DNA of 59,716 nt, filler included, from Dugesia japonica (lineage: Eukaryota), in assembly GCA_001938525.1 (NCBI GenBank). It is 4 parts of 4 records of this genome, joined end to end, with 100 filler letters (N's around TTAATTAATTAA, not from the genome) between each part and the next. Parts side by side here need not be neighbours in the genome. Positions count along the whole stretch, not along the records: positions 46,675 to 59,716 come from MQRL01602272.1; 3 more parts are not named here. One strand, given 5' to 3'. The notes under the pieces were generated by a model that saw only the letters and a program-made list of their open reading frames with translations, ran no database searches and had not been told where the DNA came from. This document shows, in pieces, positions 415-56,780 of the stretch; positions within the stretch are counted from its first letter, which is position 1; every line of letters starts with the position of its first letter. The position numbers and the translations under genes are program-made.

Positions 415-477
415 CATTTCAATAAATTACATTATTTCAAATAAAATGAAATAATAATAAAAAGTTATAAAAAAGAC

Positions 478-3400
478 ATGCCAGCATTACGAGGAATTAA
501 TAATATTAATTTACCTTCAATTATAAGGAGAAATAGGATAAATAGAATTAATAGATTCACCTCTCGTTTAAATCGTCAAGAAGTACTGGGGATTAATAGA
601 TTGAGTACAATAAATGTTCACCACTATTATTTTAAGGAAATTATATCTAATGATTTATTTTTAACTGATAATATAAATACCTATTTATCTGGTTTTGAAA
701 ATACAATCAGAGATAAGATAGAACACTGTCCTTACAAGAAATTCAAATCTATAATATCCTGCACCGTTTATATGAAAAAAGATATATTAATTAACGAAGA
801 GATAGAAAATAGAAATACTTATAAATTATTTCAGTCGCATCCTTTAATTTGTTTTAAAAATAATTATGAAGAAATTTATGTAAGTAAAATAATGTTTTTG
901 ACAATATGAACAGATTACAAGGAAGCAATTGGAGAATAATAAGTTTTATTAGACCTTGGATTAGAATTCATTAGAGTTAAATTTTTACCTGGAGAGCATA
1001 TTGTAAATTTTCCATTTAGATCCAATTCAACAATAAATATTAAAACAAAAGATATTTTTTGCGTATTTTGGCATAATTTGCGTATTTATTTCCTCAGCCG
1101 GATAATTCACATCATAAAAGCGAATTTTAATATTATTCAAAATATTTTAAAGCAATAAATACTGATGTATTGGTGAAAAATATTATAGATCTAAATCAAA
1201 TAATAGAGACAGGTTTTTCAATAAATAAGATTAACCTTCTGGAAAAATTATTCAACATCTCTATAAATGTCCTTGAATTAGATCGAAAACCGCTTGAAAA
1301 TAATATAACACTCCGAAAAAGTTATAAATCATCTCCATTGCATATTTCTAATTATGAAATAAAAACTAATGTCTTCCAATGTTAAGTTTTAAATGATTTT
1401 CATTATCAATACTATTATAATCATAATTTAAGGTATTTTAAGGTGTAATAAATGTAAACTCTATCATATGGGAAAGTAAGATTTCTAGATAGTTATCCAT
1501 TATTACAAAACTCGATAGAGGTTATATCAAAATCATTAACAAAAGAAGAGAGTAAAATATTATATAATTTCTGTAAAGAAGAATCAGCAAGATTAACTCC
1601 AGACGTAGTAAGATTAACTTTAGGAAATACGACAAGTGATATTATAGCCAATCCTATAAATACATAAATAACTAATAATGTAGGTGGAGGATTAAATATA
1701 GAATCAGCAATTATTGAACCAGACGCTTTATTTGAACTAATTAAGAAAAATGGAATATATCCATATGAGTAGATTGATAATCCATCAAAATATTATGAAA
1801 CGTATTATGACTTAAATGGTAGATTTTTTCCTCTACCAAGATAATCGTTTTATTCGGCATTAAATGGAAAAGGAATAACTAAAGATGAATATAAAAGATA
1901 TAAAGACGTTTATCAATTATTTAGATGTCGAAATTTCATTGATTTCACAATCCTATATAACTATTATGGCTGATGCAATAGAAAAATTTAAAGCTATAAA
2001 TGATTTCGACATATTTTGTTTCAGCTTCTGCTTTAACATGGAAGAAATGTTTAAAACACACAGAAATTAAATTAGAATTATTACAAACGTAAGAAATGAT
2101 CGAATTCTTTGAAAGAGTAATAAGAGGAGGAATATCTATGGCATAGGAAACAGATATGTTAAACAAAAAAATAAATACAGTAATAAAGATTTTGAGGATT
2201 TCGTAGTATTAAATGATGAGGAATATCAAAATTTATTAAATGATTTTAAAATAAACGGAGAAAATACAACTAAACTTCTAGAGACTTTAAAATCTAATTT
2301 TCTATTATATATCGATGCAAATAATTTATACGAACATTCAATGAGTCAACCTTTGTCTTATAGTCATTTTGAAGAAGCCTCAAAAGAAGTAATTGATTGC
2401 ATAAACCGAAATCCAATGCAAACATTACAATTTATGTTTAATGAAGCAAAATAAATACATAATAACGAGTTTAATGTTGGTTATGCTTTTAAAGTTAATT
2501 TACAATATAAAGATGATGCAGCAAAATTAGCTAATAGAAAATATCCATTAGCTCCAGAGAAAAGAAAGATAAAAATAAATGAATTATCTAGCTATCAAAT
2601 AAATTTATTGAATCAATCAAAACAAAAGTTTGTTAAGACAGAAAAATTAGTTTTAGATCTAAATCCGAAAACAAACTACGTTGTATATTGGAAAAATCTA
2701 TAATATTATATTTAAAGAGGTATGGTTGTAACAAAAATACATGAAGTAGTTTAATTTAGAGAAAACCATGGTTAAAAGATTATATAGTTTATAATACAAG
2801 AAAAAGAACTGTAGCTACAACTGACTTTGAGAAAGATTTTTGGAAAGTAATGAATAATGTCTTCTTCGGTAAAACAATGGATAATATAAGATTAAGAAAA
2901 AATAAAGAATTAGTTTATTTTTCTTCTCTAAATAAAACTACTTTAAAAGCATAACCATCATTAAACTCGTTATTATGTATTTATTTTGCTTTATTATACA
3001 TAAATTGTAATGCTAGCATTGGATTTCGATTTATGCAATCAATTACTTCTTTTGAGGCTTCTTCAAAATGACTATACAAAGAATTAGTTAATACGCCAAA
3101 ACAATTTATAAAATGAACTTCTTAATAAACATTTAAAAGTTTATAACGATTTGATGAAAATCTATTCGCTTGTCACTTTACAAAGAAACAAATACAAATG
3201 AATAAACCAATTTACATTGTATTTGTTATATTAGAATTATCAAAGTTAAATATGTATAAAACTTTTTATGGAGAATTAAATCCTATATTAGATATCACAC
3301 CAATATATACAGATACTGATTCTTGGGTGCTTAAAATTAAATCAAATGATTTATATAAAGAAATAAGAGAAAAGAATTTAAAAGAAATATTTGATTTCAG

Positions 3401-3790
3401 TAATTATGATATAAATAGTAATACTTGGAGACAATTATAATTAACTCCTGAAGATTTAACTAAGCATAAGAAAGTAATTGGTTATTTTACAGATGAATAA
3501 GGAAAACAAATAATGTTAGAATTTTGTGCTTTATAATCTAAATCATATTGTCTTATAAATGAAAATAAGAAAGATGGAATTAAAGAGAAAAAGAAAAATA
3601 AATGGACAAGTAAAAGTGTTGTTGATAAAGAAATACACAAGAGTAATTATAAAGATGCAATAAAGAATGGTGATTTACAATATAATATTAATTATAATAT
3701 TAGATCAAAATTACATTATGTTTATACAGAAAAACAAAATAAAATATCTTTAAATCCATACGATGATAAAAGATTTTATTGCCATAAAAG
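478..3790 (+). pseudogene. Polinton/Maverick/adintovirus-type protein-primed DNA polymerase B, fragmented by stops and frameshifts
   Basis: Ordered pPolB motifs by manual translation: INIKTKDIFC (~1035), FLDSY (~1482), NGIYPYE (~1750), IRGGISM (~2120), YIDANNLY..SMSQPL (~2307), YPLAPEK (~2542), DFEKDFWKVMNNVFFGKTM (~2823), NKPIY..ILELSK (~3201), YTDTDS (~3306), KKVIGYFTDE (~3468), LNPYDDKR (~3750). Confidence 0.9.
2916..3077 (-). repeat. Inverted copy of pPolB sequence 2360-2495 inserted within the polymerase gene
   Basis: 2940-3075 is the reverse complement of 2360-2495 with a few mismatches. The insert is bracketed by the 12-bp direct repeat aaagaattagtt (2904-2915 and 3078-3089). Confidence 0.85.
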
Positions 3791-4022
3791 AATAAAAAAA
3801 TCATTTATAGAAATTTATAATATTATTGCATCAATACTTTTATTTCAACGGAATAAACAATTCAAAAGCTTACCAAAAATGTTAGAATCTTTTACATTAA
3901 AAACAAATTTTCAAATAAAAAGAACAACTTACTATGAATATATGCGATATTTAAAATCATCTATATATTTATTACAATCTTGATATTCAGCACAAAATAA
4001 TAACGATTTAATTAATTTTATT

Positions 4023-5421: not shown

Positions 5422-6927
5422 ATGGCGTCACGATCATTGCTGGAGGAACTTATCGACTGGTTAAATGAAAATAAGATGTTTTCAAAGAAATTTATAATTG
5501 TAAAAAATATTTCAAATCATATTACCGAATTCGAAAAATTTGCCGAAGAACAAAAAATTGGGGGTTCAACACAACGCTCAGAGAAGTTGTTGAAAAGTTT
5601 AGAAAAAGAAGCATTGTTTGAGCTACTATCAATTCCATAGTTTAAATCTAATAAATCGATTTATGAATGGCTGAAGACAAAGTTATATAAATTATATCAA
5701 ATCAAGGTAACTCCAATAATTAATATTTTATCCTTGAAGCAGGAAGATATGACTCTTAGACAGTATCTAACTGCTATCAGAGTTGCTGGAATTCGCGAAA
5801 TACCAGATTACGAAGAATTTGATAGAGAAAAGACTCTGTTATCAATATTTTTGAAAGGGCCTAATAATCGTTCGGCAGCCAAAGCCACGGAAATTATGAA
5901 ACCAAACACTCTGGAAGAAGCTTTCAATTTTATGAAAAAGGAAGATAAAACTTGAGATAATGATAAATTGCGAATTATAAGCAATGATGTTGATACAGAA
6001 AATGGGCAAGAAATGAAAATATTAAAACGAAAAATTATTGAGCTTAAAAATCGTATAAAGTATTTGGAAAGAAACCATGAAACAGATTCTCCAAAGTNNN
6101 NNNNNNNNNNNNNNNNNNNNNNNNNNNNNNNNNNNNNNNNNNNNNNNNNNNNNNNNNNNNNNNGAAATTGTAACAAACCATTGCTATGCAGGAACTGTAA
6201 CAAATCCGGACATATATCTCAATTTTGTCAAGCAGCAAAAGGATCTAATATTCAGAAAGACGTTTTTCGAAGACTAGAAGAAATAAATGACAATTCTAAT
6301 ATTGAATATGATGAAGCCAGTTGTAATTATGAAAAGGAATCTAAAGATAATGAATTTTTCAAAAGAATTTTTTGAAAGAAAGGAAAACTAAAAGACGAAA
6401 GGAAACAAAAAGAAATATCAACTACCCAGACGATACTATTAAGTTGGATGAATATATTCAATATTCAAGACACAAATTTCCAATTCCCAAAGGACAAAGA
6501 ACAATGATATCAAATAAAAGAAGCGAACCCGCAGCAAACAAACCAATAATCAAAGGCAAAGTAGAACAAGAAGAAGAGAAAAGTTTTTATAGATTCTAGA
6601 GCAGAGTCCAGCAGCATGGATTTTAAATTATTTCAAATGATCAGAGAAAAAGAAAAAGTCAAGCTGCTTCGATCAAAGAAGACGTTAACATGTGCAAACG
6701 GCTCACGAATTAAGGTGATTGGATATTCTTTTATAAATATAACTATAGGAAATAAAACTAATAGAATTAAGATGACTATTGTAGATAAATTGTTCCCAAA
6801 AGTTAAAATAGGAAAAAGGTATATGAAAAAAATGAACATTTCGATTTTACCAAAACTAGACTGTGTAACTGTAGATGAAATAAAAGTACCTTTCATNTCC
6901 AAAATAAGAAAGTTAGTGGAAAACTAA
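5422..6927 (+). pseudogene. gag: Gypsy gag (CCHC zinc knuckle) and aspartic protease
   Basis: CRNCNKSGHISQFC knuckle (~6187-6230). VFIDSRA at ~6583 is a degenerate DSGA protease site, followed by LTCANGSRIKVIG. Confidence 0.8.
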
Positions 6928-7429
6928 AGAGCACTATATCCGAGCGTCCAGATAATAGTGCGAGAAGTGTGAAGAGGGCTCAAATTTGTACAGTAAGAAT
7001 TATGTTAGAAAATACAGTTACAATTTTGGAAAAGAGGAAGTAACTGTTTTTATCGAGTGTGGATAGCCGTATTTTATGTTTGAAGGAAATTTTATTTAGC
7101 CCTTATAAAAATAAGTTAGCGAATATAGGGGTTTGTCTTATGTTAGAGAAACTGTTAAAATTCCAGTAAGAATAATTAACTTTAAAAATAAAGATATTAC
7201 AATGTTTAGAAATACGAGATTAGGCTGTATTGAAATTGTAGATGATACAGAAGATAATATTGGAAATATTAATAGAATATATCAAGATAGCGGGATAGGG
7301 CATATACAATGCTTAATGGATACGATTATGAACAGACCTTCAGTTGATATCGATAAAAAAACGAAAAATACTGTAATAAAGTTAATAACAGTAAAGATAA
7401 TTATGATATCGGACATTTTCCACTTTTAA

Positions 7430-9330
7430 AACACGAAATAGATGTAATTGATCTTAAAAATATCGCTCAACCATTACAAAGAGCTCCCTCATCTAGAGAG
7501 TAAAATCGACGAGATGATCAAAGATCATGAACAAAACGGAATCATACGCTAGAGTTCAAGTCCGTGGTCTTCACCTATTGTGGTTGTTCAAAAGAAATTT
7601 GGAGACATTAAATTATGGATAGACTATAGAAAATTAAACTCAGTTACTAACCGACCTATACATCCTATTCCAGATAACCAACAGTTGTTCGATTCACTTG
7701 CGGGATCAAGATTGTTTAGTGCACTTGATTTATCTAGTGGTTATTACAATGTAGAAATAAGTGACAACGACAAATGGAAAACAGCTTTTGCTACACGAAA
7801 AGGTCAGTATGAATTTATTCGTATGCCTTTTGGACTGTGTAAAGCACCAGCAACTTTTCAAAGATTAATTCATTTAGTTCTCAGAGAAGAAAATTTCGAT
7901 AAATGCTTAATATATCTCGATGATATTTTGATTTTTGGGAAAAGCATAGAGAAACACAGTGAAAGACTGAAAAGGATATTAGAGAAGATACGGCAGTCAG
8001 GAGTTAGGTTATCTCCCCAGAAATGCGTTTTTTTGAAAACTTTAGTAAAATGTTTGGGTCACATAATATCAAGCGAAGGAGTGACAACTGATCCAGAAAA
8101 AATTAGTGCAGTAAAGAATTAGAGTACTCCTAAGACAAATGAAGAATTATCAAGTTTTTTAGGGTTTTGCAATTATTACAGAAGATTTATTTGGAGATAT
8201 GTCAAAATCGTTAAACCTCTAGAAGATTTGTTAAGAAATGCAAGCATTACGAAAAACGAAAAAAATGTAGATTTAACATGGGAAGAATTTCATAAGGAAT
8301 CTTTTGAAAGTCTGAAACATGTTCTTAAAAGCGCACCAGTTTTATCGTATCCAAATAGGAATGAAATTTTCGTATTGGATACAGATGCTAGTCACTTTGT
8401 AATGGGAGCAGTTTTAAGTCAAATTCAAGATAACGAAGAAAAAGTAATATGCTATGGATCTAATAAGTTTTTGAAAGCAGAAAAAATGTATTGTATAACC
8501 AGGAAAAAACTCATGGCAGTGTATTACTTTGTAAAGAAATACATGCATTATTTATTGCGGAAGAAATTGATTATTCGTACAGATTACAAGAGTTTAACAT
8601 GGATGTTGAATTGGAAAAGACCAAATACATCACAGTACTGCTCCTGGATTGATGAATAAGTATGTAGGATTTTGAAATTCATCATCAAAAAGGACAATTA
8701 CATGCAAACGCAGGTGCACTTTCCAGAGAATTCCAGTGCGAAAAATGTGAAATAAAACATATCGACCCAAAAACTAGACAAAATGTCAAAGTGCTTTTAA
8801 TGCCATGTGCTGAGAGAAAGCAAGGAAATAAAATATGTTATAATATCAAAAAGTCTTTTACAGCGACATAACATAACATAACATAACTACTACCAAATAG
8901 TGGGAGTTATTCATATATTTTAGGAATCATCGATGATTTTTCTAGATACATAGCGTTAACACCATTGAAGAATATTTCTGCAAAGACAGTTAACGAATTG
9001 ATATTTGAAAGATTGATAGCGTACTTTGGTATTCCGAGGATAATTCATTCTGATAACGGAACACAATTTAAATCGGAAATAATGAAGAAATTGTGTAATA
9101 AATAACAAATAAACCAATTATTTTCAGCACCATATTATCATCAGGGTAATAGGCTTATATTACGCGTATTTAGAACAGCCAAAGACAAATTATATGCATC
9201 CTTTAAGTCGCATAACTAATCGTGGGTTAAAGCAATTCCTTTTGTTGAACTAAATATGAGATCATCAAGTAACAAAAAATTGTAGGTCTCACCTTATGAA
9301 ATTCAATTTGGAAAAAAGATGAATTTGAAA
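7430..9330 (+). pseudogene. pol: Gypsy pol: reverse transcriptase, RNase H, integrase core
   Basis: RT: SSPWSSPIVVV, IDYRKLN, LDLSSGY, MPFGL, YLDD (7913). RNase H: LDTDAS..MGAVLSQ. Integrase: IIDDFSRY, FGIPEIIHSDNGTQF, APYYHQGN. Confidence 0.95.
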
Positions 9331-26513: not shown

Positions 26514-29099
26514 GTGAGAAATATTTTTCCTAATAAATACAATATCGATTCATTTTACAATCTCAGTTAAATCTGTTACTCTTAAAGTGAAATATCATTA
26601 TTCTAATCATAAGTTGCACTTTAATTTTCAGGAAATATTTTAATTTTGATGACTTTTTCTTTCAACTTTCCATTTGCCTAATTTTTTTACTGTCAGATAT
26701 TTTAATAAATCAACACATTTTGGAAAATTGCTTTTACGATCTGTCATACGAATCTCCAGTGGGATTTTATTGGAATTTTAATTAAATGTAAAATTAATTT
26801 AAATAATTCGTTTATCAAAATCTGGACTTTAATAGAACTGTACATTATCTAAAGTAGATAGATCTTCATATACTGGAAAAATCAATAAAATTAAAATTTT
26901 AAATCCGAAAAATTTGAAGTTTTTAGTCAATAATTTATTAAAAATCGAAACTGTTTTTTAAGTATATAATTTGGAATTTATTTTCAATTGATTATTATTG
27001 ATTTTCTCTACTAAAAGTATATTAAAAATAAGTAATAAAACTTATCACAAATAATTGATAATTAAAACAATTTTTTTATTGAAATATTTATTCAATCGAT
27101 AAAAAAACTGTTGAATTTTAAGAAATTAATTTTGATTTCTCTAATTATTATTATCTCTAATAATTATTTTACAATTATAATCTATTTAACATAAAAATTT
27201 TATCCCAACTGTTCTAATGGGGCGTATAAAAACTATAATTTTATGAAATTATATTATTCGAAAATTTCTTAAATAGTTTCCGCTGTTTTTATAAAATAAT
27301 AATGATTATTGATTTTTAGATAAATTTTGAAATTACCATGTTCAATTTAAAAGTTCATGAAATATTTATTTCGAATATCGATCAAGGAAAAATAATGAAA
27401 TACGAATATTTGAGTGAAATTATAAAAATAGCAATTTTCAAATGAATACAATTATGAATCATCGAGGTCTTATTAGTAACCGTTTATGTAAATATTTGTT
27501 AATATTAAGTCAGTGTTCATGAATTAAAATTGTTCAGGTTTTAGAATTTTTAAAAAAAATTTACCCCAACAAACTTTATTATAATAAAAGAAACTAATTT
27601 ATCATATCTATGAATAAATATTGATTTGAAATTTTTGACAAAAATATATTTTCTTAACAGATCCGAAAATGTTTTTCTGAAGTTATGTTTTTTAAATAAA
27701 TTTACAATTTTTTCATACTTTCATTTTAATTAAATTTTTTTTTAAAATTATATATTTTCTTTTATCACTCATTATTCTTAGAAGAATATCTACTGCTGGA
27801 ATTAATCAGAATTTCTTTATATTTCATCAAACCATAAATAGTTAAAGTACAAAGCTTATTGTTTAATGTTAAAGCCTGTATTTAAGGAAATAATTATAAA
27901 TTTCGAATAACAATCATTAAGAACCCAAGTGAGTAATAATTAATGGTCAAGTAGCCAATCACATTATTTTTCTCTATTTAATTTCCTACTATAAATAATG
28001 AAAAAATTTTATAGATCGAAATTATTTCTCCATTATACTCTAATTACAAAAGATCATAAATTCCGAATTTTGTATTAAATTTACCATATTAATGTATCAA
28101 TTTATAATTAGTTATTTATTAAGTATTTAATAATAAAACGAAAACGCAATTCATGTGAATACTGGAGAAAATTCCATAATTATTTCAAATAATATTTACC
28201 AGAATTTATTTTTTTTTCCTAGTCTTAAGATAATATCTGAACTACAGCGTTTATTTAGATCAATTTGAGTTATAGTATGTTTTTACATCAATGAATACAC
28301 GAAATACGCTTCTGATAAATTATGAAAATTTATGTTTCTATTTTCGTTACAAGAACATTTTTATTTAATAGGAAATAATTTGAAAACACTGAAAATTTCA
28401 TCACTAGTTGAAATTTAATTACTGATTCCTAGGCGCCAAAACTTTGTTTATTTCTCTTTCCTATTGGAAATGCTATTAAAAGAAAATGTGTGGCTTGATG
28501 AATCTATTAAACTTGATTTTTTTAATCATTGAAATATTTACTTTTAGAATTCGCTAGTATAAAAGATTTTTCAGTTTCATACAAGAGTATATTTTTAAAA
28601 ATAGTTTTTAGTTAAAAAATGATAATAATAATAATTATTATAGTATTATATTAAAAAAATAAATAACATGATTTAAAATAAAACTTTATTGTTATATATT
28701 TCGACAGATCAACCGTTATCATCAGACAAAATTGAAAAAAATGAGTTTATTCCGTCTGTATTAGTTAAACAAGGATTCAAGCAATCATACTGAATATAAA
28801 ATGGCTATAATTCTTAATTTTTAAAATTCTTAATATTTAAATTTTTAACTATTTTCCAATAAAAAATTAATTTATATTCAAATAAATTTTTTTTCTATAA
28901 TAATATTTCATTAAAATAACCATTTTAAACCTGTAATATCAAAATTTATTTCAAAAATATTTAAAAGTTTTAATTTTACATTGTATTTTAATTTTTTCAA
29001 AACCTTTAAAATAATAATTTTTAAATTGTTTAAACAAAATTTGAAATTTCAACATTCGCATTACAATTACTTTTATTTTAGTGCTCAGCAATATTATTA

Positions 29100-33260: not shown

Positions 33261-33344
33261 ATACCGAAGCTCAAAATTTGTTATTTTATAATCAGGAATA
33301 ATAAAACTTTAATAATAATTTTTTAACAGCCTTATAAAATAATT

Positions 33345-33680
33345 TTATTCCAGGTGCTGCAGCTATACCAAAAGACACTATTGTGCAACAATACTGTCCA
33401 TTTTTCGAAGAAAATTCTGTTTTCTCTTGTGAATCTTTATATAACGGAAATTGATAGTGTGCATTACCCAAATCCATAGTACTAAAATATATTGAATCTT
33501 TCAAATTATCTAGTATTTCCTCTAAATTGGACATCGAAAATGCCTGTCTTTTTATGATTGCATCCAGTTTTCTAAAATCTAGACATAATCTAACGTCTTT
33601 CCTTTCTTTTTTCCCAACACATATTAACGGAGTGTTCCATTGCGAAATTACACTTCCTAATAATGCCATTGTCAAAAATA
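33345..33680 (-). pseudogene. Ty3/Gypsy reverse transcriptase fragment
   Basis: SQWNTPLICVGKK..VRLCLDFRKLD...FSTMDLGNAHYQ...KTEF...SFGIAAAP. Confidence 0.85.
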
Positions 33681-34635
33681 ATTCTTGATAGTAACGAACT
33701 TACTCTAAATTCTCATTTGGCTTGTTAATCAATATTTTTTTGCTCTCTGTACTCTTTCTTTATCCGTTGTATTGGTCCATACTTTGCTTCTATATTTAGT
33801 CATATTTAGTTTGATATTTCAACTCTTGAAACAACACAAAATCTTGAACCCTTAAAAGAAATTCGACGTAGCAGACCAAAGGATAAAAGAATGCAGAGTC
33901 CAATGGAGTTCACAAATTTGAAATTAAATGAAGAAAATGTGACAAAATGTGCATAAGAGAAAATCTTATCAAATAATCCATTAATAATTAAGGAAAATTA
34001 ATATTTTATTTGTTACGATAAATTATGTGTCATTGTTGAAATTAATTTAATATTTTTGTGGCACTTTTTTAATTATTTTAAAAATTGTGGCATATTTGGA
34101 ATTATTTTAGTTTTTATTTAGCATTTTTTGAATTATCCCTAGATTAAAATTCAAATTAATAAGAATATCAAGATACTTTTCTCAACTACCAAGAAACATG
34201 TGATATTCTTGTTTTTAAACATATAAATATTGTATATTGAATGATGAGTAACTGAGATAATGATCAGACAATCAGTTACCAATGTTTTCTTTTCATTAGT
34301 ATATGACATTGAATTTACTTCTGTATAAATATTTTTGACCATATTACAAGCAGGTATCCATTGTTTCAAGGTCGTATTCATTTTGATAACTGATATCAAT
34401 TATAATTAACCAAAAATAAATAAAATTATTCTTCATTTTCGTCCCAACTGAAAGATTTATTGTTCTCTAATTAATAACAACCTGAAAATAAAATATACGT
34501 TCATTTAAATCTTATTCATTTTAATTTACTAACAATATTTGAAATAAAAGTTAACATATTTGCATTAGTTAATAAATAATTTTCTTAATAATTTTGGTNT
34601 TTTTCATGAGTTTTTAAAACAATTTTATTTTTTAG

Positions 34636-35323
34636 GTTAGTCCTAAAAGTACAATAGTGAGAGTCCAAGACCTTATATTAAATATGCCGTATGTAGTACA
34701 TATTGCTGCATCTACATGTCAAGGAGAAGGAATTCGTTCTGCTGGTTTAATGCTAACAGCATCTTCTACCATTATAACGATGAGTCCTAATCTTATTGAC
34801 AGACGATCGGGACTCAATAATGGCAAATCTATTCAAGCTTCTGTAACAAAACAACCGTGGTTTATTAGTATAATGGTGGTCGGAGGGTGTTTGTGGTTTA
34901 TGATTTGCGCATTCATTTTAGTAGTTGGTCGCAGTATGTACTTACGTGGACTGATTTATAAATCTGGGTATTCCAACGGTACGAAATTAATAGCCAACAG
35001 TAATAGTCAGATTCCTGTTACATCTAGTAATGGTCGTTTAGCGAGTCACCAAATAGTTTCACATATGAATACAAACACGAATTCCAATGCCAGTGGAATG
35101 TACAAAGATTCAATAATACTTCAACCTTTAATTGGTACTTCCAATAGTGTCAGTCCAAATGAATATCAAACCGACCCTGGGGAAGCAATAACAAACTCTA
35201 CCTCAATTCATACAACTTTAATTCCCAACAGTAGCCAAAGAAGATTTCAAGATTCGATATCAAGTAGTAATAGCACTTGTAAAAGTTCAACTAGCCAACC
35301 AATTGACAAACAAAAACAACGAT
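34636..35323 (+). CDS. robo: Robo coding exon 2: end of FN3-3, transmembrane helix, cytoplasmic tail
   Basis: ttttAG acceptor in phase 0. Y.VHIAASTCQGEG completes the FN3 domain. QPWFISIMVVGGCLWFMICAFILVV is the TM segment. Donor GTATGT at 35324. Confidence 0.88.
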
Positions 35324-35966
35324 GTATGTGTTCTTTTTATATTTTATTTCAAATTGAAATTTTGAGTGAAATATCATTAATTATCTAACGAAAACTTCAA
35401 TAATTTATTGTAATTTTAAAATTTTCATTTAAATCAAAAAAAAAATAATAAAATTATAAAAACTAATATTTGAAATAATCGTGCTGATGTAATTTTTGAT
35501 GAGATGATGCATGTTTTACCACTAGTTAGAAACTATTGAAAATTAGTATTTGTTTAAAAAATTTTAGATTAGCAAAATTTCCAATTTTCACTCTATTGAT
35601 AATTAAAAAAGTGCACGTTTTTCTTCATCAAAAAATCTGTTACGAATTTACTAGGTGATGACTACATTTTCAGATTTTTATGGGAATTGATTGTTAAGTT
35701 ATAAACATTCTTTTTCATGTCGCAATTTTAATGATTGTTTTATCTTTGGAATATTTACATCAACCAGATAAAATAGATGAACTGATAACTTAAATAAATT
35801 ATTAATTACAATACAGATAAGTTTCCAACAGAGTTGGTAAATATTTTAAAATATATATTGATTTTTTTTTTAAAAGAAAAATTGTACTAATTCGATGGAA
35901 TAATCAATTTTATTTCATCAACCATCATCAGTAGTGTTAAATATTTTGACAATTACATTTAAACAG

Positions 35967-43276: not shown

Positions 43277-46200
43277 TAAGAATTATACTTTATCAGGAAA
43301 ATGTCAGATCGCACTTAGCTAAATTTGTGTGGCTAGTTCCAGTACATATAAAGCAACCCACGTATATAGAAAGTATTTTAATTTTAATGAAGTATAATAA
43401 TGCTGTTAATGCGTTATTTTCACTATATTCTGAGTGGATAAAATTAGGTAGGAAAAGAAATGAAAAGATATTCAAATTTAGTACATTAAACCACAGACCA
43501 AAAGTTCTAAGAATGTATTCCTGTAAATACGCAATCGAACTGAGAGAATAGTGTCTTGAAGAAATAAATTTCCACCTAAAGTTTTCTGTCTCGTAACAAA
43601 AGTCATAATAATTTGTAATTGTGTATTGTTTATTATACAAGATTTCACTCCTGCTGTGTCATATGAATCAATCTTGAATTATTTAAATTTCTGTTTATTA
43701 GCAAATTTGTGATAATTTTCTCTATTTACCATATGCAGTTATTTCTTTTAAATTTAATCCGTATAAATTATTTTTTACAGTCATTAAAACTAGGCTAAAA
43801 TTTCATTTTGTGAAATATTATTTATTTTATGATTTATTGTTTCTACTAGTCATAAATACTATTCTACTTTCATTAAAAATTTGTTTAATTTGAAATTCGT
43901 TATATGTTACAATATATCATCTGCTACCAAATAAATCTTTTTATTTTAAAATTAGAGTCTTATTACTGATAATGAAAAATTAATTTTCTTTTTCAAAAAT
44001 TATCTGACTTAATTTAATTTTACTTTATTGATAACAACTAGAACTTTGTTTCCCGAATTTCCTTCTAGGTTTGATTATTTCATTTATACATCCCTACCAT
44101 CAATTCATTAATAATATTAGATGTTTTTTATTCACTGACTGTAAATGTCGCCACTAGATAAACTTTACAGTAAATTATAAACATTTCGTTATCGAAAAGA
44201 TACTTGTATGTTGTTGAAAAAGTTTTATTATAATTTTCGTACTGACAATATAATTTATAAATAATTCATTATTATTTTTGTTTGATTTATCTGAATTATT
44301 CATAAATATACAGAATTTATTCAGATTTCTAACGTTAGATTTATTTCAAAAAAATTCTAAATACAAAAAATTTATTTTGTCGGATGAAATTTCTTTAATA
44401 ATCACAAAATTTATCTCACACTGTTGTTCAGTTCTTGTAAACCAGCGTTCTAAAAGCTTATTTTTTCATGACCAATACGAAAAAATCCAGTATGTTCAAA
44501 ATTACAACGTAGGGTGAAAACAAATTAATTAATTTAAAACTTTTTTACTATTAATTAGTCTATGAATTTCTTTAGTACTAAAATGAAATGTATGAACCTA
44601 AATGCTTCTGTCTGGTGTTTTATTTGTTATCTAATGAGGTCCCGAAAATATTCTGTGTTTGTGGACATCACTTTTTATGTAAAGATTATTCTAATTCTGA
44701 TATTTTCTTTATTAAAATATTTTTACATAACGTTCATTTTATTTTATAAAATCACATTTTTGTTTTATACATTTTTGCTTTGACAAATATATCTTTGGCT
44801 AAAGAAATATTTTGATTATTGTTACTGAATGCCTGAAAGAAAAAAGTTGTGTTTTAAATATTACTCTTGAGTTATGTTTTGGTTTATTCAGTATGTGATT
44901 TTGCATGATTCCGCTGTATTTCTCCTAGGCAGGAGATAATTTAATTACTGTATTACTTTCATTTGTTAATACAACATTATAAACACAGTTTTTCACCCAA
45001 ATTTTATTAATCATAACAAGGTTGTTCCGGAAAATTGTTTGCCTTATTTTATGAAATATTTAAATAAATATTCTTGTAATATTTTGGCACTACTAAAACG
45101 TTTAATAATTAAATTAAATAAATTAGTTTAAAATTAAAAGTACTTATAATTAAACAAAAGATTAAAATTAATTTATTAAAAAAAATTATAAATATCTTAC
45201 AAATTCGTTGCTTTGTTTTATTTAATTCAAAGTTAAATCAGAAGAGAGGTGTTTTAATATTATTTGATTTGAGTAGTCATTACTAAAATTATTTTTTAAT
45301 ACGTTTTAATCAATTATTTATTTATTTCATTGTATTTTTCGAAGTTACATACTTCCTACTAAAATATATCATTTATAAATAAATAAATACAATTTTCCTG
45401 AAACTATAAAATCTATTCCTTAAACAAATCTTGGACAATAGTTTCAGTTAGCAGAAACGAAATAAAAAATAAAAATTAATCATTTTATTTCGTAAAATTT
45501 ATTTGTACGTCTCGAATGGAAAGTCAACCAATTTTTCGCTTGAACTATTTTCTCTAACAAATCTTGATTGTCTAATTACTCTTCTATTTTATCTTATTAA
45601 AATTTTAAATATTTTTTTTAATTTTTGAATAAAATTTGATACCTATAATATTGATAACAATAACAGAATTTCGATTTTTTTTTGACAAATCAAAAATGAA
45701 CAGAATACGAATATTTTTCAATTAAATGACTTTTAAAATGCCATAAAATGTCTATATTTTAAATTTTCTAAAAATGTAATTAGTAATCAATTAATTTAAT
45801 TCATTGATATTAATAATTTTATAATATTAATTTTTCTATTATTAATTTTTAAACTAAAAATAATTGAAAATAATTCAAATGAATTGGCTTTTTGATATGA
45901 AATTTTAGAATTTATAAAAATAAAAAAATAATTTCAAGTATTTAATAAATAATTTAAAACTCAATTTTAAAATATATTTCTTTATATGTTTTGACAAGTT
46001 AACTATCATCTTCAATAAAATATTTTAATTTTTCAAAAAATACTATATATTAAAAATCTGATTACGTAATGAATTATTTAACTCCTTCAATAAATCAAAG
46101 TAATTGCAAATATTCTAAAAACACTTGAACAGACTTATCCAAATATTAATTTTTGGATCATGATTGAAAATCATCAATATTTCATAAATAACTCTCTCCA

Positions 46201-46574
46201 AATAATCTCTAAAGTTACTGCACAAAATTTTTAAATTATCGATATTATCAATTGATTTACCACTAATATTACGTCCAACAATAAAAATAATGTTTAATTG
46301 ATAAAAAAAGATCAATATTTTCTAGTTGAATATCTAATAAATTCGTCCTGATATTGTTCATTTCGAAATATTGAACTATCTGTGAAAATAGAAAACAAAT
46401 TTTTCATTTTTGCTCTTCGATAAAAGTTTCATTGATAAATACAGATCAATAGTTAACAAGTAAAAACATTTAGAAGTTTCCTCTTTTTATAATTATTTTG
46501 TTTCGCAAGTCACTTTTAATGTCATTATTTTTTTCTATATATTAATATGTGAATAAATATCTACCACCTACTAA

Positions 46575-46674
46575 NNNNNNNNNNNNNNNNNNNNNNNNNN
46601 NNNNNNNNNNNNNNNNNNTTAATTAATTAANNNNNNNNNNNNNNNNNNNNNNNNNNNNNNNNNNNNNNNNNNNN
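46575..46674. other. Artificial contig-joining spacer
   Basis: N44-TTAATTAATTAA-N44. Confidence 0.95.
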
Positions 46675-47127
46675 AACATCAACTAAAATAGCAAAACTTA
46701 AGTTTGACCGAGAAAAATTGAAAAAACATTGTCGAAATCCTGAGGATGCTTAACCGACACAAATAAAAATCGTTTTTTAAAGTTTTTATCCAAATTTAAT
46801 GATCTAAGTAGTATTCGATAGAGAATTCTTTACTGATTAAGCATAAAATNTATCAAATTAAATTACTTTGAAAAAATTTTACATTAATTATTAATTAAAA
46901 AATAATAAATATCTTAAAATTCATAATCAAACTATCTATTCTATAGAGAAATGTACGATGATTAAGGTCATGCACCAAGCACTTTTATAAAGCGTTTATT
47001 CTCTGTGCTGTTTTGTGTTGTTTTATTTTATTATTATAACAAGCATTAAATATAATACATAACACAGATATAGTAAAACAGTATATAGAGAAGTTTTTTT
47101 AACAAAGACATTACACAAATAACTGTT

Positions 47128-48500
47128 TTATTTATTAGATGTAGCAGCATATTGAGCTTAAATCCACTTTGTATTGGGCACAACAACACCATTTTTTTTA
47201 TCTTTCTCTTCTTGATGATATTTGATAAATGGTAAGGCTAACATTTGCTGAGGACATTTCTATGGTTGCGAGTGAAAATAATTTAATGTTTGTGTTTTAC
47301 CATCCAATAAACTATCCCACCCTTTAGCTTGTTGCGGATACAATCCGAAAAACTCAAATTCATATGGTATCTCAAATTTTATTTGATTGTGTGTACTCAT
47401 TCTGTTACCAGAGAGTCCAGGTAATTGAGCAGCTTTGGAAAAAAATTCTGGGCATGATATCTGCAGTGATATCCGGAGCCAAGTACATTGCATAGAATGT
47501 AATAAATTCATCAAATGTTTTACAGCCATAGTCTTTAATATTCTCGTTTTTGTACACTTTGATTTCTGGCACTGGTTTAGATACATCTTTCGCATCTAGA
47601 TTCCAATTGGTAGTTTTTACTCTGCATGGTAATTTATACATTTTACCGTCTGCATCAATTTTCTTCCATGTATAACCCATATTATCATATTCAGATGAAG
47701 TTGTGAAATTTTTATATTGATAATAATCAAATCTAAAATAATCACAATCATATTTATCATTAGTTGTGGTGTATGATTGTAAAAACCATTCAGCTGTTGC
47801 TTTTGGTGGTCCGCCTTTGCAAACATATGTGAAATTTATTTCTTATTGGGCATTAGTCAATGCTTGTCCGACATGATTAGCTCCTTCATATGGTAAAAAT
47901 CGATTAGTTGTAGTTTTATTTCATAGTGTTTCCTTTGTTAATTTCACCATAGCACCTTCATAAAAACCACGATATAAATGTTTATTATTTTCACATATCT
48001 CTTAAAATGCCGTTGCTTTCAAAGGCGGATCCATTAATGGACCAGTTAAATTCATATTATCTTCCCATTTTAATAATTCGGTATTACGAGGTGCGCCAGA
48101 ATAATCTTGAGTAGACACTTGACCAGTTGTTTGCAAATTATATAATTTTAAATGACATGGTTTTGGCCAAAAACATTGATAATTTCTAATTACTTCTAAC
48201 AATTCAGGATCTTGCCCTGCAACATGAAGATACCACCACTCCCAAGGAAAATTAAACCAGTCATCATTATCAGTATCACTAATATAAAACATGCCATTAT
48301 TAGATAAAGTAATAGTTTCACCTCCGTCCATCTCGTGGTGGAGAGTACCCCTATAATCTTCTATTGAACCAGATTGTTGTAAACCAATACTAGCAGATTG
48401 TGTAGCTTGTTTCATAAACGTAAGTGGTTAGATAATTCTTCAACGCACTCGGCGTACTGCTGAAAACGCTTTCTACGCGCCTTTAATATATTTTTCCATG
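47128..48500 (-). pseudogene. Parvovirus/densovirus-like jelly-roll capsid protein (endogenous viral element), disrupted
   Basis: WFNFPWEWWYLH...CHLKLYNLQT near the N-terminus and MPRIFF...STHNQIKFEIPYEFEF near the C-terminus parallel the parvoviral VP motifs (PW.Y..., PQI.IK, GQV..EIEWE). Intronless, with the stop overlapping AATAAA. Confidence 0.65.
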
Positions 48501-49675
48501 GTATGACCTTGAACTGCATATTATCATCTACTTTATGAGGTGGTGGCCGTCATTTATCTGCACATTCTTGATGTATTAATTCAGCTAAATAAGTACTAGC
48601 TCTATCTCTATTACCAGTAATATATGTCATATCTTCTAAATTAAATGATGATTGTGTCTTTGATGGAGTTGATGGTACACATGATGGTGAATGAGATGGT
48701 GTGTTTCCAGGTGGTGCTGGATTGAATGACGATAATGATGACGATAATTGACTGGATGCTCGTTTTCTCCGTAATAATCCACCAGTAGGCTCCCAATTGA
48801 TTGTACTACTACTTACTACAGTACTTGCTAAAGTGGTTTTTTTGCATTGGGATTGCCTCTAAGTTTCGCTGGTCGCTTTGATGGTTTACGATGAGGTCAT
48901 TTGCAATTTATTGTTTTCTCATTGGATGTATCGGTTTTTCTTTATCTGGAGGTTTATCATTACCCGAACTAACACGAGGATTTGTCGTTTCTGTTTGAGA
49001 TGTAGTTTGTGTGTATTGTGGTATATTATCAGTCAAATCACGACTTGCTAATTCCGCTCGTAAACTAGCAATAATAGATTTAAATTGTTGTTCATTATAT
49101 GCATTGTCTGGACTTTTACCGATAATTTCTTTAAGTAATTAATAAATAGCTGTACTAATAGCTGCGCTAGATATAACTTGAATAACACTGTCTGTTAAAT
49201 GAGACCATAATTTTTGTTTTAATTTGCCTTCAAGATACTTTTTCATAGCTTTCTTTATTTGATCTTTAACATATAAACAAAGCCATGCACCTGGGCCAAT
49301 AATACTAATAGCAATAGCAAAATCTTGTACTGTTGCAGATGGGCCATATTGTTGTTTAATTTTTAAAAATTCAGACCACATAGCTAAAGTTTCAGATATA
49401 ACAAATAAATGATCGTCTTTTTTACGTAATTCGTCTAATATTTTTCGAAAAATTTCATTTTTCTTATTTTCATCATGTTTTTCTTTGTCTTTCATAAAAT
49501 TTTCATATAATAAGCGTTTATTTGGTGGCTTTGGCCGCTCATAATGATATTTAGTATCTGGTTTAGGTGGGTTTAGTCGATTTTTGTCTTTATGATATAT
49601 CACATGATGACTAATTGTAGTAATATTAGCATCCGTACCACTAGTATGATTAAGTGCTGTGTGCGAACTAATCAT
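48500..49675 (-). pseudogene. Upstream viral ORF(s), possible VP1-unique or minor structural protein
   Basis: The 178-aa ORF continues past an in-frame stop (LLKEIIGKSPDNAY...) into Ser/Pro-rich and basic (LRRKR) sequence, on the same strand directly before the capsid region. Confidence 0.5.
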
Positions 49676-49862
49676 AGCTATTTTTCATAAAATGAAATAT
49701 ACTACGTTGCAAGACTTTAAATATTTAATAGAAAAATTATTTTGTTAATTTAACTAATTTATACTACGTTGTGGTATTTTAGAAAATTATATATAAAACA
49801 GCGCATAACCAGAATTTTATTTCACAACTTTATAATTTTATAAAACTTGAGTCTACGGTTAT

Positions 49863-50489
49863 ATGCATCAAAATGAGTCAACAAAGGAATCAGAACAATC
49901 CGACAGTGTATTACGCGGATATGTTATACAAATATGTTTTCATTTTATAATATAGGAATAGAATGAAGTCCAACCGATAATAACAGCAGTTTTCAGTCTA
50001 CCGATGGATCAATTCAATTTGCATACAACTTCTTCGAGTGAGGACGAGGAATCCGATACCAAACCTCTCTAAATAGACGAGATAACATCGGGAACACCGA
50101 TCACAAATTTTTACAATCAACGGACAAATCGGATGATGAGTACATGGCAGCGGTTGACAGCGTTGACGCTGATATTCGACAACACCTCAACAATATCCCA
50201 TTGCCATACGAAAGAAACGATAAATGTAATGCATCCGAAAATGAAAAAAATTTACAACAATGCTCTACTGACTCCAAAGGAAGAAAGCGTTTGTTTGAAT
50301 CCAGCACACATGGCATGGATATCATTGAACGAACCAGAAAACAGCCATTTAACTCTTCATCAGAGAGCACAACAAATAATGCCTCGATCAGTTTTAGAGA
50401 AGTATTCGGGATTCATCCAAGCCGAGATTCAATCGCTTGTATTATTTAATACTGTATTAGTTAATCAATATTATATCAAAAACGTATGA
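49863..50489 (+). pseudogene. Dual-frame overlapping ORFs, putative truncated NS1/NS2-like 5' region of the viral element
   Basis: TATATAAAA at ~49790 and ATG at 49863. Two frames (50133-50489 and 50144-50449) are open together and both extend upstream with few stops. No helicase motif is visible. Confidence 0.4.
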
Positions 50490-51169
50490 ATATGGTAATA
50501 TCGTGTATTTGTTGTTCTATATTAATAAACAAGATAATACCTTTTAAAGTTTTATTTTGGTATATAGAAAATATGTCAAAACCCCTAAAGCCTTATAAGC
50601 TAATATTAATTTATCAGAGAGCTACTTCCCGTAGAGGTCAGAGTCTCTGTAAATTTAAAAATCTGAATATCCAATAAAATTTATCGGTATTTATAGTGAA
50701 TTCAGCATAATACAACTACCACTCAAGTCTTAATGACACTTAATAAAAATACTTAAATTTTGCAAAACTCTTGAAATAAAATATTTTTTCTTTGTTTTAT
50801 TTATTGCTTTGCTATATTAAAATAATTGATTTTTTCCACTGATTTTTTTCTCTCGTTCAACAAAATCAACTAAATCAATTTCACCTGTCGACTTCTTAAA
50901 TGTTTACATAAAAATAAATTGTCTAGTAAAAATAAAATAAATAAAATGCGTTTATACAAAATATTAAAATAAACATAAATTGATTGTCTAAAGATCCNNN
51001 NNNNNNNNNNNNNNNNNNNNNNNNNNNNNNNNNNNNNNNNNNNNNNNNNNNNNNNNNNNNNNNNNNNNNNNNNNNNNNNNNNNNNNNNTTATCAAGTTGA
51101 TTAATAAAGTGTCTATTCATCGAGGGTTGTTTTTGATCATGGCTTGAAAGTTTAACTGAGAGTTGATTA

Positions 51170-54100
51170 TCTGATTGAGGATTGCTGAAATTCTTTTATG
51201 TTGTATGTGTGTATGTTGTTGTATTCGCATGCTTTATATTTACATGATCTCAACAAGAAGATGGCGCACGGAAATAGTTGGATTTTTTTGAAATCCTAAT
51301 TAGTTACATCCACGTCAGATATTTTGGCTCCGGAGTCTTCGATTTCTTCAATTTCCAGATGGTCAACTTGTCCATTTTTGAATCTCCAATGATTGCTTTA
51401 CCAGGCTATTCACTTTCTGATCGAAACAAGACCAAGTGTTTTGATTGTGTTACGGCGGAACCCAACATGTTTGAGCACAGGCTCATTTTCTTCACACCGC
51501 GATTCCAAACACCCGATGGTTATCGTCTCAAGGAGAATTTTTCATTTGTGTACGTTTTTTCTGGATATCCTCCTTGAGTGGTGTGTATTTTGCGATGCTT
51601 AAATCCCTCGCTAATTTTGGATTACTGGATGTATCATAGTGAGTCTTTACATCCAGTAATATAATTTGTTTACCCTCGCTATTTATTAGTTGCAAGTCAA
51701 CAAGATCAGTCCTGTTAACAAGGTCACAGATCTGATCGACGATGACTATAAAGCAAATGTGGACTCTAATAAACCTGGCAAGTAGATCAAGCAGATCATT
51801 GTGTTGCCCTGTTTTAAAAGCTGAAGAAGAAGGCAATTACACAAGACATGTGTTTGAGTTTCCAAGTAATAACCACAATTCCGATAGGATGTGAATGACA
51901 TCCGATGATTGCAACTTACTAAAAGTGTGCCTGTCCTTGCTTGGTGAATGAAACGTCATTCATTAGGTTTAATAGAGCTATCGAACAGCGGTTTGGTGGA
52001 TAGTGTGGATGCACAATAGCTTTAAATAGCGCTCCAGTTTTTGTCTAGGTGTTTCTTTGCCTTCAATTTGCTCAACTGAAAAGACCATGAAGCAGTTTGG
52101 TCATCGCTCTTTGGTCCTTCATAGAAATCATATAGTTTCCTTCATTGACTCAATCAATCACCTGTATTCAGACTCCTAGCTCGCTACGCTTGAATCTGAC
52201 TTGCAGATAGAATATTTTGTAGAGAAAAGTAATTGCGTTATGAAACTAAGACCACCAGCATTTGAGTTTTGAATTTGTGGTCTTAGTGTAGAGCTCTTTA
52301 GGTGTTTCGTGGCTGCATGAATTAAATCATTGCTGGCTAAATCCCGTACAGTCTCATCTGAACATTCAAGAATATTAAATGCCTGAACAAGAGATTATAC
52401 AGAGTATTCGTCCCTTGCAGAGTTTTAACCGACCCCCGTAATTTTTGGGAATTTAAAAGACAGTCATAGGTTGCCTAAAAGAGAAGAGAGAGAATTTTTC
52501 TAATGTAAGTGTGGATATGGTTGTTGATTGTCTCGGGCTCTGTAAGTTACGTAATTTTTGGAGTGGCCACTGCAATTGAATTTAATCAAAGAAAATGTTG
52601 AAATTCCTGAACGCGAACGTAAACTTTGAGTGAATAAAGGTTCGGTACGCGTGGATTTTTTGCCAGGGATAGAGAACCAAGTTTGTTATCTTTTCAAGCT
52701 CCTTGGCAGATTTTTCAAACATTTTTCTTGGAGTTTTGAAATGATCGGGGTCAAAGTCAACCCCATGGTGCCTATCAGAATCTAGGTGCTGAAGTTTACG
52801 GACAAGTTCTACCTTGATTGTAATTAGAACAAGATTGCTATTAACAGGGCAAGGTAAATATGCGCACTTACTCGGCCGAAAATCAAATCGAGTAGCTTGC
52901 ACAAGAAACACCAGCCGCGGGAGTCTTTGTCATCTCGCTTATGATTGGGTTAATTCCTATGTTGAACAATAACATAGATAAAGGACAGCCCTGTCGGACG
53001 TCTCTTTTGTTTGCAATAGGACTAGTGAAAGTTCCATTGCAAGTTTAGTAACTGGAGCAGTCGGAGTACAGTCTCTTATTAGATTGATGGAATTTTCATA
53101 GATACCTATTCTAGTGAGCTGACCAAGAATGTGTTTTATGGTAATGCTGCCGAAAGCATCTGCAACATCCAGGAAGTCGATATGCAAGTTAAATTTAGCA
53201 TATTGACTCTGCCTATTCAGCAGACATCGCAGCAGAAAATTGTGTACAGAACAGCCCTCCGACTCGACAGCACTTTTCTTGAAGTTGTGAAGCAGACTGG
53301 ATCTCTTGACCTAACTTGACAACGGAGATGTCGACAAGCCATGAATAGCTTGTACAAACAATGCAGCAAAGTTATTGGTCGTTATGATGATACTTCGCGG
53401 CATGACTTAGCTTTGACTAGTTTTGGAATTATCAGCGTCAAGTAACTTTTCCCACTGTCCGGAGTAATACCAGAAGATAGAATCTTCTTAAAAATTTGGT
53501 GTTATAGAGCACACTTTGGGTCTTCGGATTTCAGATCCTAGTACCTAATGTTATTTAAACAAGGAGCTGACACTGACTGGCCATAAAGTGTGCTTCTTAT
53601 TGCAGCCGCATCCGGGCAGTGGAATTGAAACCCATTCGCATAGGATTTTATAGGGGCGCAAAGATCCCAGTTAGTGGGGGGGCCAGCATCAGCTTTAGAC
53701 TGAAAATACTCTTCGAGATCGACCTGAGATAGAAAGCAGTCAGCTGTCATTTTGTTAGTGATCAGCTCAAAAACTGCTTTTTGAGAGGTATAGAACCAAT
53801 CTCGCCGGTTTATATCCAGTTCTGTGGGCTTTTTAGTTTTACCCTCACCTATTTTAAAATTCAAGGTTTTGGGTTTTACACATCGACAGAGTGAACAAAG
53901 ATGTAGAATGAATCTACAGCAGAATTGATATCACTTCTGTCGATGGGTGATAACATGTTGCTTATTTTACCCTGGTTAGTTTTTTTAGCCTCATGTTGTT
54001 TATTTGCGCTTTTGATTTTATCCAATTTATTTTTGTCCCCTTTGATTTTAATAAAATTTAGATATTTAGATTTAAGGCTAGCTATGTCAGCTCTTTTCAT

Positions 54101-54949: not shown

Positions 54950-56780
54950 TCCTAGAACAAATGACGTTAACAATTATGCGGGAAACGATAGAATATTTTG
55001 AAACTGATTATGTTAAAAATTATGTAAGAAAGATAGAACAATCTGGAACAAATGACGTTTAAAATTAAGCGGGAAACGATAAAATATTCTTATAAGGGAA
55101 ACTTAAAATTTTTTAAAAAGGGAAATTTTGATTTGTTTGAATATTGAAGTTTTGAAAAGGTTTTCGGCGAAAATTTGGATTTGGAGAATATTGGATTAGA
55201 AAGTAAATTTTGTATATTTTTATAACATTTTACTATTTTACTGTAATTGATTTGTAATTTAATTAAGTTGTAATTGATTTGTAAATAATAAATATATTTT
55301 ATTCTAAAGATCTTTAATTATTTTCAGCTATTTTTGTTGTAATGAATACAAAAGAAGAAGAAAATATTATTAATGACATGAGTATTCTTCACAATTCTGG
55401 AACTGATTACGATAAAAATTATGTGAGAAAGATAGAACATTCTGGAACAAATGACGTTTAAAATTATGCGGAAAACGAAAAAAAGAAAGATGATAATGGC
55501 GCATATATAGATGAGGATGAACTCCTTTATGTAGAGTGGTCGGAAGTTCAATCAATGCTAAGAGGAGAAAGAGCAAAGTGCGAATATGCGCGGAGATTTA
55601 GAAATATCACAGCTACAAGTGATAATCAAGGAAACCAACTATCTTCTCTCCAACTATCAAAGGAGATGCGACTAGAGTGTTGTTTGGAAGAGGCCTCGAT
55701 GTTGCCGGATTCCACTAATAGCTCTACACAGAAAATCACAAACGTACGGATTTTAGTGGGATCAGTCGACGAGGAAATGGAAGCCGAAAAGTTGCAGATA
55801 ATTCAGCAATTGATGGGTCTGAGAGTAATGGCCTCTGTGGAATTGGTCGAATGAAAATAAATGTATATAGTATTGAGATGCTGTTGCTTCCTATTGCTTG
55901 TCCATAGTAATGTGATATGTATGTCACAGTGTTGATTTATTTTAATTTTTTTATTAGTTTAAGAGCTGCAGAGGTGGCGAGTGATTTGATGACATTATTG
56001 TTTTAGTGTAACTAAATGAGAGTTTTGTATTTTTTATGCCTAAAAAATGACGAAGTGAGAGATTAGCATTTCAATAACTGAGTGATAATAACCTTACTGA
56101 TAATATGTCATAATTATGTGTTCATGCTTTCATCATTGTAAAACTATTTTAGTGAACAAATCGAACGAGGAAATGGAAACTAGAAAAGAGTTATGGACTG
56201 CACAGAAGCGATGGAAGGATGAGCGAAAGGAACTGAGGAACGAAATCTTGAGGCTGAAGGGACAAGTTATGAAGGCAACGGGAAAATTTAACAAACTTAA
56301 AGAAAAAGAGTTGTCTCTACAGCATGCAAATCGGCTCATGGCGGAAGTCATCAAAACATATTCAGGCCGTGAGAGCTCGATGTTCACCACATTAAGAACA
56401 CTGTGGCTGAATTATTCACATTTGTCCAATGATCTGATTAGTGCCAACAATACAGTGGACTTAGACGCAGATTAGCCAACTAAAAGAAGCGTAAATAATT
56501 AAATAAATGGTAAGCGAGTCGTTAGAGTATTTTTACATTATTAATTTTTGTAAAGTTATGGTGTCAAATTTTAACTGAGCATGTGAGAGATATTGCTGTC
56601 AGGGTTCAGAAATCTAATGAGTAAGACGCGATACTACAAAGTCGCGCTGAACCAGTAGAAAGAGGGGCATGTCACAGAGGTGAAACAAATGCTTGTGGTT
56701 TTTAGGTATGCCCTAGACGTTATGATGAAAGTATAAAAAATGAAAGTGTGAACAGAGAATTTAGAGAAAGAGTTTAAACA
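54950..56780 (+). repeat. Unclassified repeat or element with ~90-bp repeated units and short ORFs (55555-55854, 56116-56475)
   Basis: The unit gaacaaatgacgtt..aattatgcgg.aaacga occurs at ~54955, ~55046 and ~55445. The coiled-coil ORF resembles the one at 16800-17116. Confidence 0.5.

Follow-up and report, generated by a model that had tools for sequence, protein, structure and literature searches.

A parvovirus-like endogenous element with back-to-back capsid-like and NS-like cassettes in the genome of the planarian Dugesia japonica

In the genome of the planarian Dugesia japonica, a broken and likely virus-derived insert carries two coding cassettes that are arranged back to back around a short, AT-rich spacer. 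The insert resides in a stretch of 59,716 nucleotides of assembly GCA_001938525.1 (filler included), referred to as "the window", in the part that originates from record MQRL01602272.1. A capsid-like cassette is present on the minus strand, and two overlapping frames with likeness to the non-structural (NS) genes of parvoviruses follow on the plus strand; the start codons of the two sides (ATG at 49675 on the minus strand, ATGs at 49863 and 49873 on the plus strand) face outward and are 187 nt apart. This back-to-back layout is real. An earlier note, made from the sequence alone, had described a ~2.5-kb minus-strand cassette and a dual-frame plus-strand region diverging ~190 bp apart, which is borne out by the measured 2,548 nt and the 187-nt gap. 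The GC content is raised in both cassettes (0.33 and 0.38) compared with 0.19-0.23 in the flanks.

The minus-strand cassette extends from its ATG (49675-49673) to a stop codon at 47130-47128, with which an AATAAA word overlaps, and is broken into four stop-poor segments by three frame changes near 48860, 48430 and 47430. It begins with an open frame of 178 aa (49139..49675) in a position like that of the VP1-unique region; the same frame continues, with stops, to ~48810, and the N-terminal block as a whole contains 1 stop in 255 codons, a count that none of 1000 shuffles reached, and is without a family match in Pfam, PDB (by sequence), IMG/VR and the atlas. A Ser/Thr/Pro-rich linker with a basic cluster follows in a separate frame (48430..48860), interrupted by one stop (48550-48552) in 141 codons (2/1000 shuffles as low). 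The capsid-like block proper (47405..48427) occupies a single frame with in-frame stops at 48002-48004, 47921-47923 and 47843-47845, that is, 3 stops in 340 codons versus a shuffle mean of 25.3 (0/1000 as low), and includes a parvovirus-like motif at ~48105-48270. The C-terminal piece (47128..47460), again in a separate frame, holds two internal stops in 110 codons (15/1000). Since the segments were chosen by eye for openness, these shuffle values are generous.

Between the cassettes lies the AT-rich spacer (49676..49862), likely a two-way promoter, a function that we infer from TATA-like boxes on both strands. On the minus strand, a TATA-like box at 49723 is followed 28 nt on by an initiator-like TCATT at 49695, and on the plus strand, a TATA-like box is located at 49790; these words correspond to consensus promoter motifs. 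The spacer contains a 12-nt direct repeat on the plus strand in two copies (49698-49709 and 49760-49771) which are 62 nt apart, an arrangement found in 6 of 300 shuffles. A 42-nt piece (49760..49801), which begins exactly at the second repeat copy and includes the plus-strand TATA-like box, matches a very high-copy host repeat, with a summed depth of up to 17,000 versus 5-8 in all four DNA sequencing runs considered; it may be a shared promoter module or a chance match at the 80% likeness used as cut-off. Inverted symmetry, in turn, is at chance level, the longest exact inverted repeat of the spacer being 9 nt (matched in length by 115/300 shuffles), and no hairpin is predicted (fold z +0.41), so that the claimed absence of a long inverted terminal repeat (ITR) between the cassettes holds. 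Outside the spacer, a geminivirus-type nonamer, TAATATTAC, at 49628-49620 was rejected as an origin candidate; it falls inside the capsid-side frame, half of it belongs to a stem that is weak (z -1.14), and the window contains this 9-mer 6 times.

On the plus strand, the ATG pair (49863, 49873) leads into an NS1-like frame (49863..50449), which is open over 49967-50449 except for a stop at 50039-50041. It is overlapped by a +1 frame (49992..50489) with a stop at 50070-50072, which is NS2-like by position only and whose last codons fall into the flanking repeat. The uninterrupted overlapping parts cover 50042-50449 and 50073-50489, and each frame has 1 stop in ~160 codons (2/1000 shuffles as low). 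Neither an HUH nor a Walker A motif occurs in the three plus frames, of which ~200 codons are kept. The region is cut by a high-copy host repeat (50461..50750), where the summed contig depth amounts to 250-810 versus 8-109 in the cassette bins, the jump being at least tenfold at ~50460-50475; as had been noted before, the cut precedes any helicase.

Four DNA-type sequencing runs (X1, X2, X6 and X7) were aligned to the window, relatives of the insert being known as short contigs. In X1 (49539-50135) and X6 (49561-50038), the spacer is crossed by contigs ~98% alike, and in X2 two such contigs overlap across it, with none among the X7 pieces listed; because these contigs stem from runs of three studies, the junction is not an assembly chimera, and the insert occurs in further individuals. 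Further pieces, 87-92% alike along the cassette and past the capsid stop, represent diverged relatives in the same species, and both cassettes have the same diverged relatives. As far as listed (40 of 516 difference rows), the diverged copies show, in the plus frames, net in-frame indels of 48 nt and 3 nt and, in the linker, a stretch exchanged for one of much the same length, a pattern like that between virus strains; positions 48733-49020, in the region of the N-terminal frame and the linker, have no alignment to a diverged copy, and the joint is seen in three of the four runs. At the internal stops 49139, 48002, 47921 and 47158, every covering contig listed has another letter, and at 47843, 50039 and 50070 some do, while for 3 further internal stops there is no row among those listed. 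Accordingly, the frames were open recently, or some of the stops are assembly errors.

Evidence for recurrence of the layout in other copies comes from contigs of depth ~19-22 that cover 49580-49674 and the area around 49689, compared with 4.5-7.8 for the closest copy, from summed depths of 40 and 59 over 49687-49729, and from a 90% contig joining spacer positions 49733-49777 to the NS frame across ~130 unaligned letters. This suggests, at the level of aligned short contigs, that both sides of the spacer are also present in diverged copies. With relatives found along the cassette and apparently tiling the spacer, a family-wide layout is favoured over a one-off scramble, although no diverged contig covers the spacer whole.

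At the left edge, a stretch of about 165-170 nt past the capsid stop (46950..47127) is common to the diverged copies and may be a remnant of the 3' end of an NS gene; within it, a plus-strand stop (47100-47102) faces the capsid stop with 25 nt between them. It is followed outward by a high-copy repeat (46851..46947; depth 660-1,120) with loose ends at 46947. Runs of N are located on either side of the insert (46575-46674 and 50998-51088), one of which holds a 12-nt AT word between N runs; because of these gaps, the wider context of the insert is uncertain.

The minus cassette quite probably encodes a parvovirus-type capsid. When the unbroken frame 48005-48427 was compared with PDB, 5 of 21 weak matches were 60-chain VP2 capsids hit over one and the same stretch (E 0.035-0.62). 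Against a profile built from the capsids of 22 vertebrate-parvovirus genomes (IMG/VR L001-L022), the capsid block came first (E 0.083) when the window was divided into 600 six-frame tiles, with a score reached by 2/2000 shuffles, and an HH profile alignment gave a probability of 45% and an E of 2e-4 over 54 columns (0/150 shuffles). Because the reference set was fetched by a motif beside the matching stretch, these three results are one line of evidence; the capsid call of the earlier note thereby receives modest statistical support from one motif. Nothing was retrieved for the cassette from Pfam, PDB (by sequence, with the 340-residue block), IMG/VR, metagenomes or a word-limited and thus weak search of 5.8 billion proteins. 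The block also did not match the six ambidensovirus capsids (HH 0.05%); yet a true ambidensovirus capsid scored 0.16% against the vertebrate profile, so the test is insensitive across subfamilies. Two further search matches are taken as chance, one of which (L029) is a 7-residue word in a bacterial peptidase-like gene, and two stretches from another search are regarded in the same way.

With less assurance, though still probably, the plus frame corresponds to a parvoviral NS gene. References for the ambisense densoviruses were six genomes from IMG/VR (L023-L028), in addition to AdMADV (PMC3820778). The NS1-like frame aligns with residues 3-98 of ambidensovirus NS1 (score 55, 12/1000 shuffles), which lends weak support to the NS identity proposed before. 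The ATGs of the pair are offset by +10, as opposed to +7 in all six ambidensoviruses, with the same +1 frame relation. Given that the alignment ends at about residue 98 and that HUH is found at NS1 residue 132-133 in each of the six references, the motif is expected past the cut. Sequence searches with the NS1-like frame had no match in PDB, and two further open frames had none in the atlas, where a blank result is uninformative. A match to an NS profile near 10.5 kb of the window was rejected as low complexity, and Rfam gave no match.

How did such an arrangement arise? The explanation that we tentatively prefer, with a little less than even confidence, is that the insert derives from a template which had this layout natively, being either circular or end-joined without hairpins. 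The uneven divergence among the copies is as expected of separate virus strains and hence favours a native layout, or a linear genome with outward-facing genes; the plus-strand stop that faces the capsid stop at a distance of 25 nt, comparable to five of six ambidensoviruses, faintly favours a native circular or end-joined template. A more specific version, which we hold to be unlikely, is an invertebrate virus lineage that combines a parvovirus-type capsid and NS1/NS2 with a natively circular, hairpin-free genome and one back-to-back control region, and that integrated several times. The layout would suit a circular genome rather than the linear one usual in parvoviruses; among the short contigs, none connects the two ends of the element. 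In a virus with the preferred native layout, the spacer would drive transcription in both directions via the TATA-like boxes on both strands, the 12-nt direct repeats possibly serving as NS1-binding sites. The minus transcript would yield nested capsid proteins without phospholipase A2 (PLA2), and on the plus transcript, leaky scanning of the two ATGs 10 nt apart would give both NS1 and NS2, provided that the ATG pair is followed by a short intron or an indel. Insertion would have opened the circle within the NS gene, or the NS part would have been lost later beside the host repeat.

Several findings weigh against a virus with this native layout. Concerning the copies, some of the diverged ones also have frame-breaking indels and are therefore possibly decayed duplicates; none of the diverged contigs listed crosses the spacer on its own, the shared layout being assembled from short contigs, so that the proposed recurrence is suggested by tiling but not seen in one piece; and in two of seven available raw RNA runs (oligo-dT, a quarter of the reads each), no read at least 95% alike was found over 49300-50560. 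As to an origin of replication, there is no nonanucleotide stem-loop of the circovirus type in the spacer, nor NANTANTAC, and the circovirus-like option of the earlier note fails its own test at this point. On the capsid side, support is limited to 54 columns, the tests are mutually non-independent, the top PDB match of frame 48005-48427 is an unrelated spike fragment, the C-terminal piece is in register with the last capsid strand without significance (15/100 and 1559/2000 shuffles), and a single-sequence fold of the block is uninformative (pLDDT 31), a fold search with it being meaningless; the fold thus contributes nothing to the capsid claim. On the NS side, the NS1 match is of low complexity and was obtained in one of four comparisons, with six references that are mutually 92-94% identical, while the NS2-like frame is not significantly similar to NS2 (363/2000) and is out of register with the NS1 match.

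Alternatively, a linear ambisense densovirus-like genome may have been end-joined or scrambled once at insertion, with loss of its hairpins, and the locus may later have been duplicated by the host, which we regard as possible though doubtful. Precedents exist: JcDV DNA was scrambled on integration (PMC5978394), which also counts against a native layout, densovirus concatemers in a tapeworm genome are arranged head-to-tail (PMC6880638), and so is a bocavirus episome (PMC3125170). Furthermore, the NS1/NS2 geometry and the 25-nt distance of the facing stops are ambidensovirus-like (29-31 nt in five of six), and high-copy repeats are found at both edges of the insert. In joined ends, however, the ATGs would be 1,213-1,233 nt apart (3 references) rather than 187 nt, and the spacer is without inverted symmetry, even though both promoters sit in the ITRs (PMC3820778); the simple end-to-end junction considered in the earlier note, for which inverted symmetry and, in lepidopteran ambidensoviruses, ~1,200 nt between the ATGs are expected, therefore fits poorly. 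Moreover, the uneven divergence and the in-frame indels look more like separate virus strains than like duplicates of one locus.

Two other explanations appear improbable. The plus frames could be something other than parvoviral NS, or the minus cassette something other than a parvoviral capsid, with two unrelated pieces adjoining each other; the lack of a match in Pfam, PDB, the atlas or the protein collections at usual thresholds, and of an HUH or helicase motif in the plus frames, would accord with this, whereas the same diverged relatives and the raised GC content (0.33, 0.38) on both sides, the dual open frames with an NS1/NS2 offset, and a capsid motif that outscores shuffles speak against it. 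Marginally less probable still is a linear virus in which both cassettes pointed outward from a central promoter toward terminal repeats that are now lost. PEVE, a planarian element, reportedly has two unique halves between inverted repeats. Such a linear virus shares all of the spacer evidence with a natively circular or end-joined template, and its true ends could be hidden by the repeats and N gaps beside the insert; on the other hand, there is no hairpin at 46940-47040 (z -0.51) and no long inverted repeat over 46000-51500, and the plus-strand stop beside the capsid stop weakly hints that NS once reached round.

If a template with this native layout is accepted, a parvovirus-type gene set can exist in another genome form, with a central two-way promoter and no hairpins, which would bear on the relation of linear parvoviruses to circular DNA viruses. 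Even on the plainest reading, the locus represents a deeply divergent, recently open invertebrate capsid lineage, with the vertebrate parvoviruses as its best motif match.

The window, which is AT-rich and contains N gaps, includes several other features. An uninterrupted frame of 848 codons on the plus strand (24024-26570), unusually long for one exon, encodes five Ig and FN3 domains and is, as we presume from its architecture, Roundabout-like; a likely transmembrane exon follows at 34636-35388 (+). Slo-like RCK domains, as in a calcium-activated potassium channel, are encoded by exons at 20267-20515 and 22341-22607 (+), the second of which ends ~1.4 kb upstream of the Ig/FN3 exon, itself also on the plus strand. 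Mobile elements are represented by broken frames at 445-3983 (+), which are DNA polymerase B-like by eye, without a Pfam match, and may be a Polinton-like remnant; by a decayed long terminal repeat retroelement with reverse transcriptase and RNase H (5956-8659, +); by a second reverse transcriptase-like fragment, recognised by eye (33292-33699, -); and by decayed frames resembling a non-LTR retrotransposon to the right of the insert (52582-53930, -; weak reverse transcriptase match, E 0.12). Two coiled-coil frames (55462-56475, +) are probably part of a host gene of no clear family.

In relation to known systems, the insert is an unclassified endogenous parvovirus-like element that lies, by defining tests, outside the ambisense densoviruses and the CRESS families. 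With the ambisense densoviruses it shares the placement of capsid and NS on different strands, overlapping NS1/NS2-like frames whose two ATGs are separated by a few nt, and a weak likeness at the NS1 N-terminus; its capsid cassette measures ~850 codons versus 805-811 there. However, the genes diverge in the element and converge in all six references, and it is without an ITR or hairpin, without an NS3 frame before the ATG pair, and without a PLA2 motif, neither HDxxY nor DxxAxxHD occurring in the three minus frames (with one lone GPG) and no Pfam match being obtained. PLA2 is present in the VP1-unique region in most genera of the Parvoviridae, without being universal in the family. The vertebrate parvoviruses, AAV- and bocavirus-like by motifs, provide the best capsid match, including PW and an N....PK...K..N.Q stretch, but have monosense genomes, the match comprising 54 columns at 24% identity and not extending to NS. 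A linear genome that ends in hairpins is a defining character of parvoviruses, whereas the spacer and left edge of the element are hairpin-free, its native ends possibly not being preserved.

Parvovirus-related sequences are familiar from invertebrates. Multi-copy insertions, some of them head-to-tail concatemers, are present in invertebrate genomes including flatworms (PMC6880638; PMC5013282; PMC13055364), and parvovirus-like elements in flatworms other than planarians are also treated in PMC10269781. In the Echinococcus element EmuDNV, VP is located downstream of NS1 and the ITRs are ~230 nt long (PMC6880638); the D. japonica element has neither feature. Free-living flatworms harbour the extrachromosomal PEVE and the multi-copy integrated PIVE, both related to parvovirus NS; the section on them in PMC3198968 describes NS/Rep-like genes and makes no mention of a capsid facing away from NS. 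The linear single-stranded DNA families are the parvoviruses and the bidnaviruses (PMC7737747; PMC4061559), of which the latter also encode a protein-primed PolB (PMC4061559); no PolB-like frame is found in 44000-54000, the polymerase-like remnants recognised by eye being 43 kb away. A back-to-back parvovirus-like genome is not described in the literature searched, and Repbase, subscription papers and supplements, which were outside its scope, may hold the element.

Diverging replication and capsid genes are a feature of several circular DNA viruses. In the Circoviridae, other CRESS viruses and the polyomaviruses, both start from a short bidirectional control region that contains direct repeats. 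The element differs from the Circoviridae and CRESS viruses in being without a nonanucleotide stem-loop and a visible Rep, and in a capsid cassette that is far larger and parvovirus-like. Should its lineage be natively circular, which we consider unlikely, its layout would be intermediate between those of the linear parvoviruses and their circular relatives.
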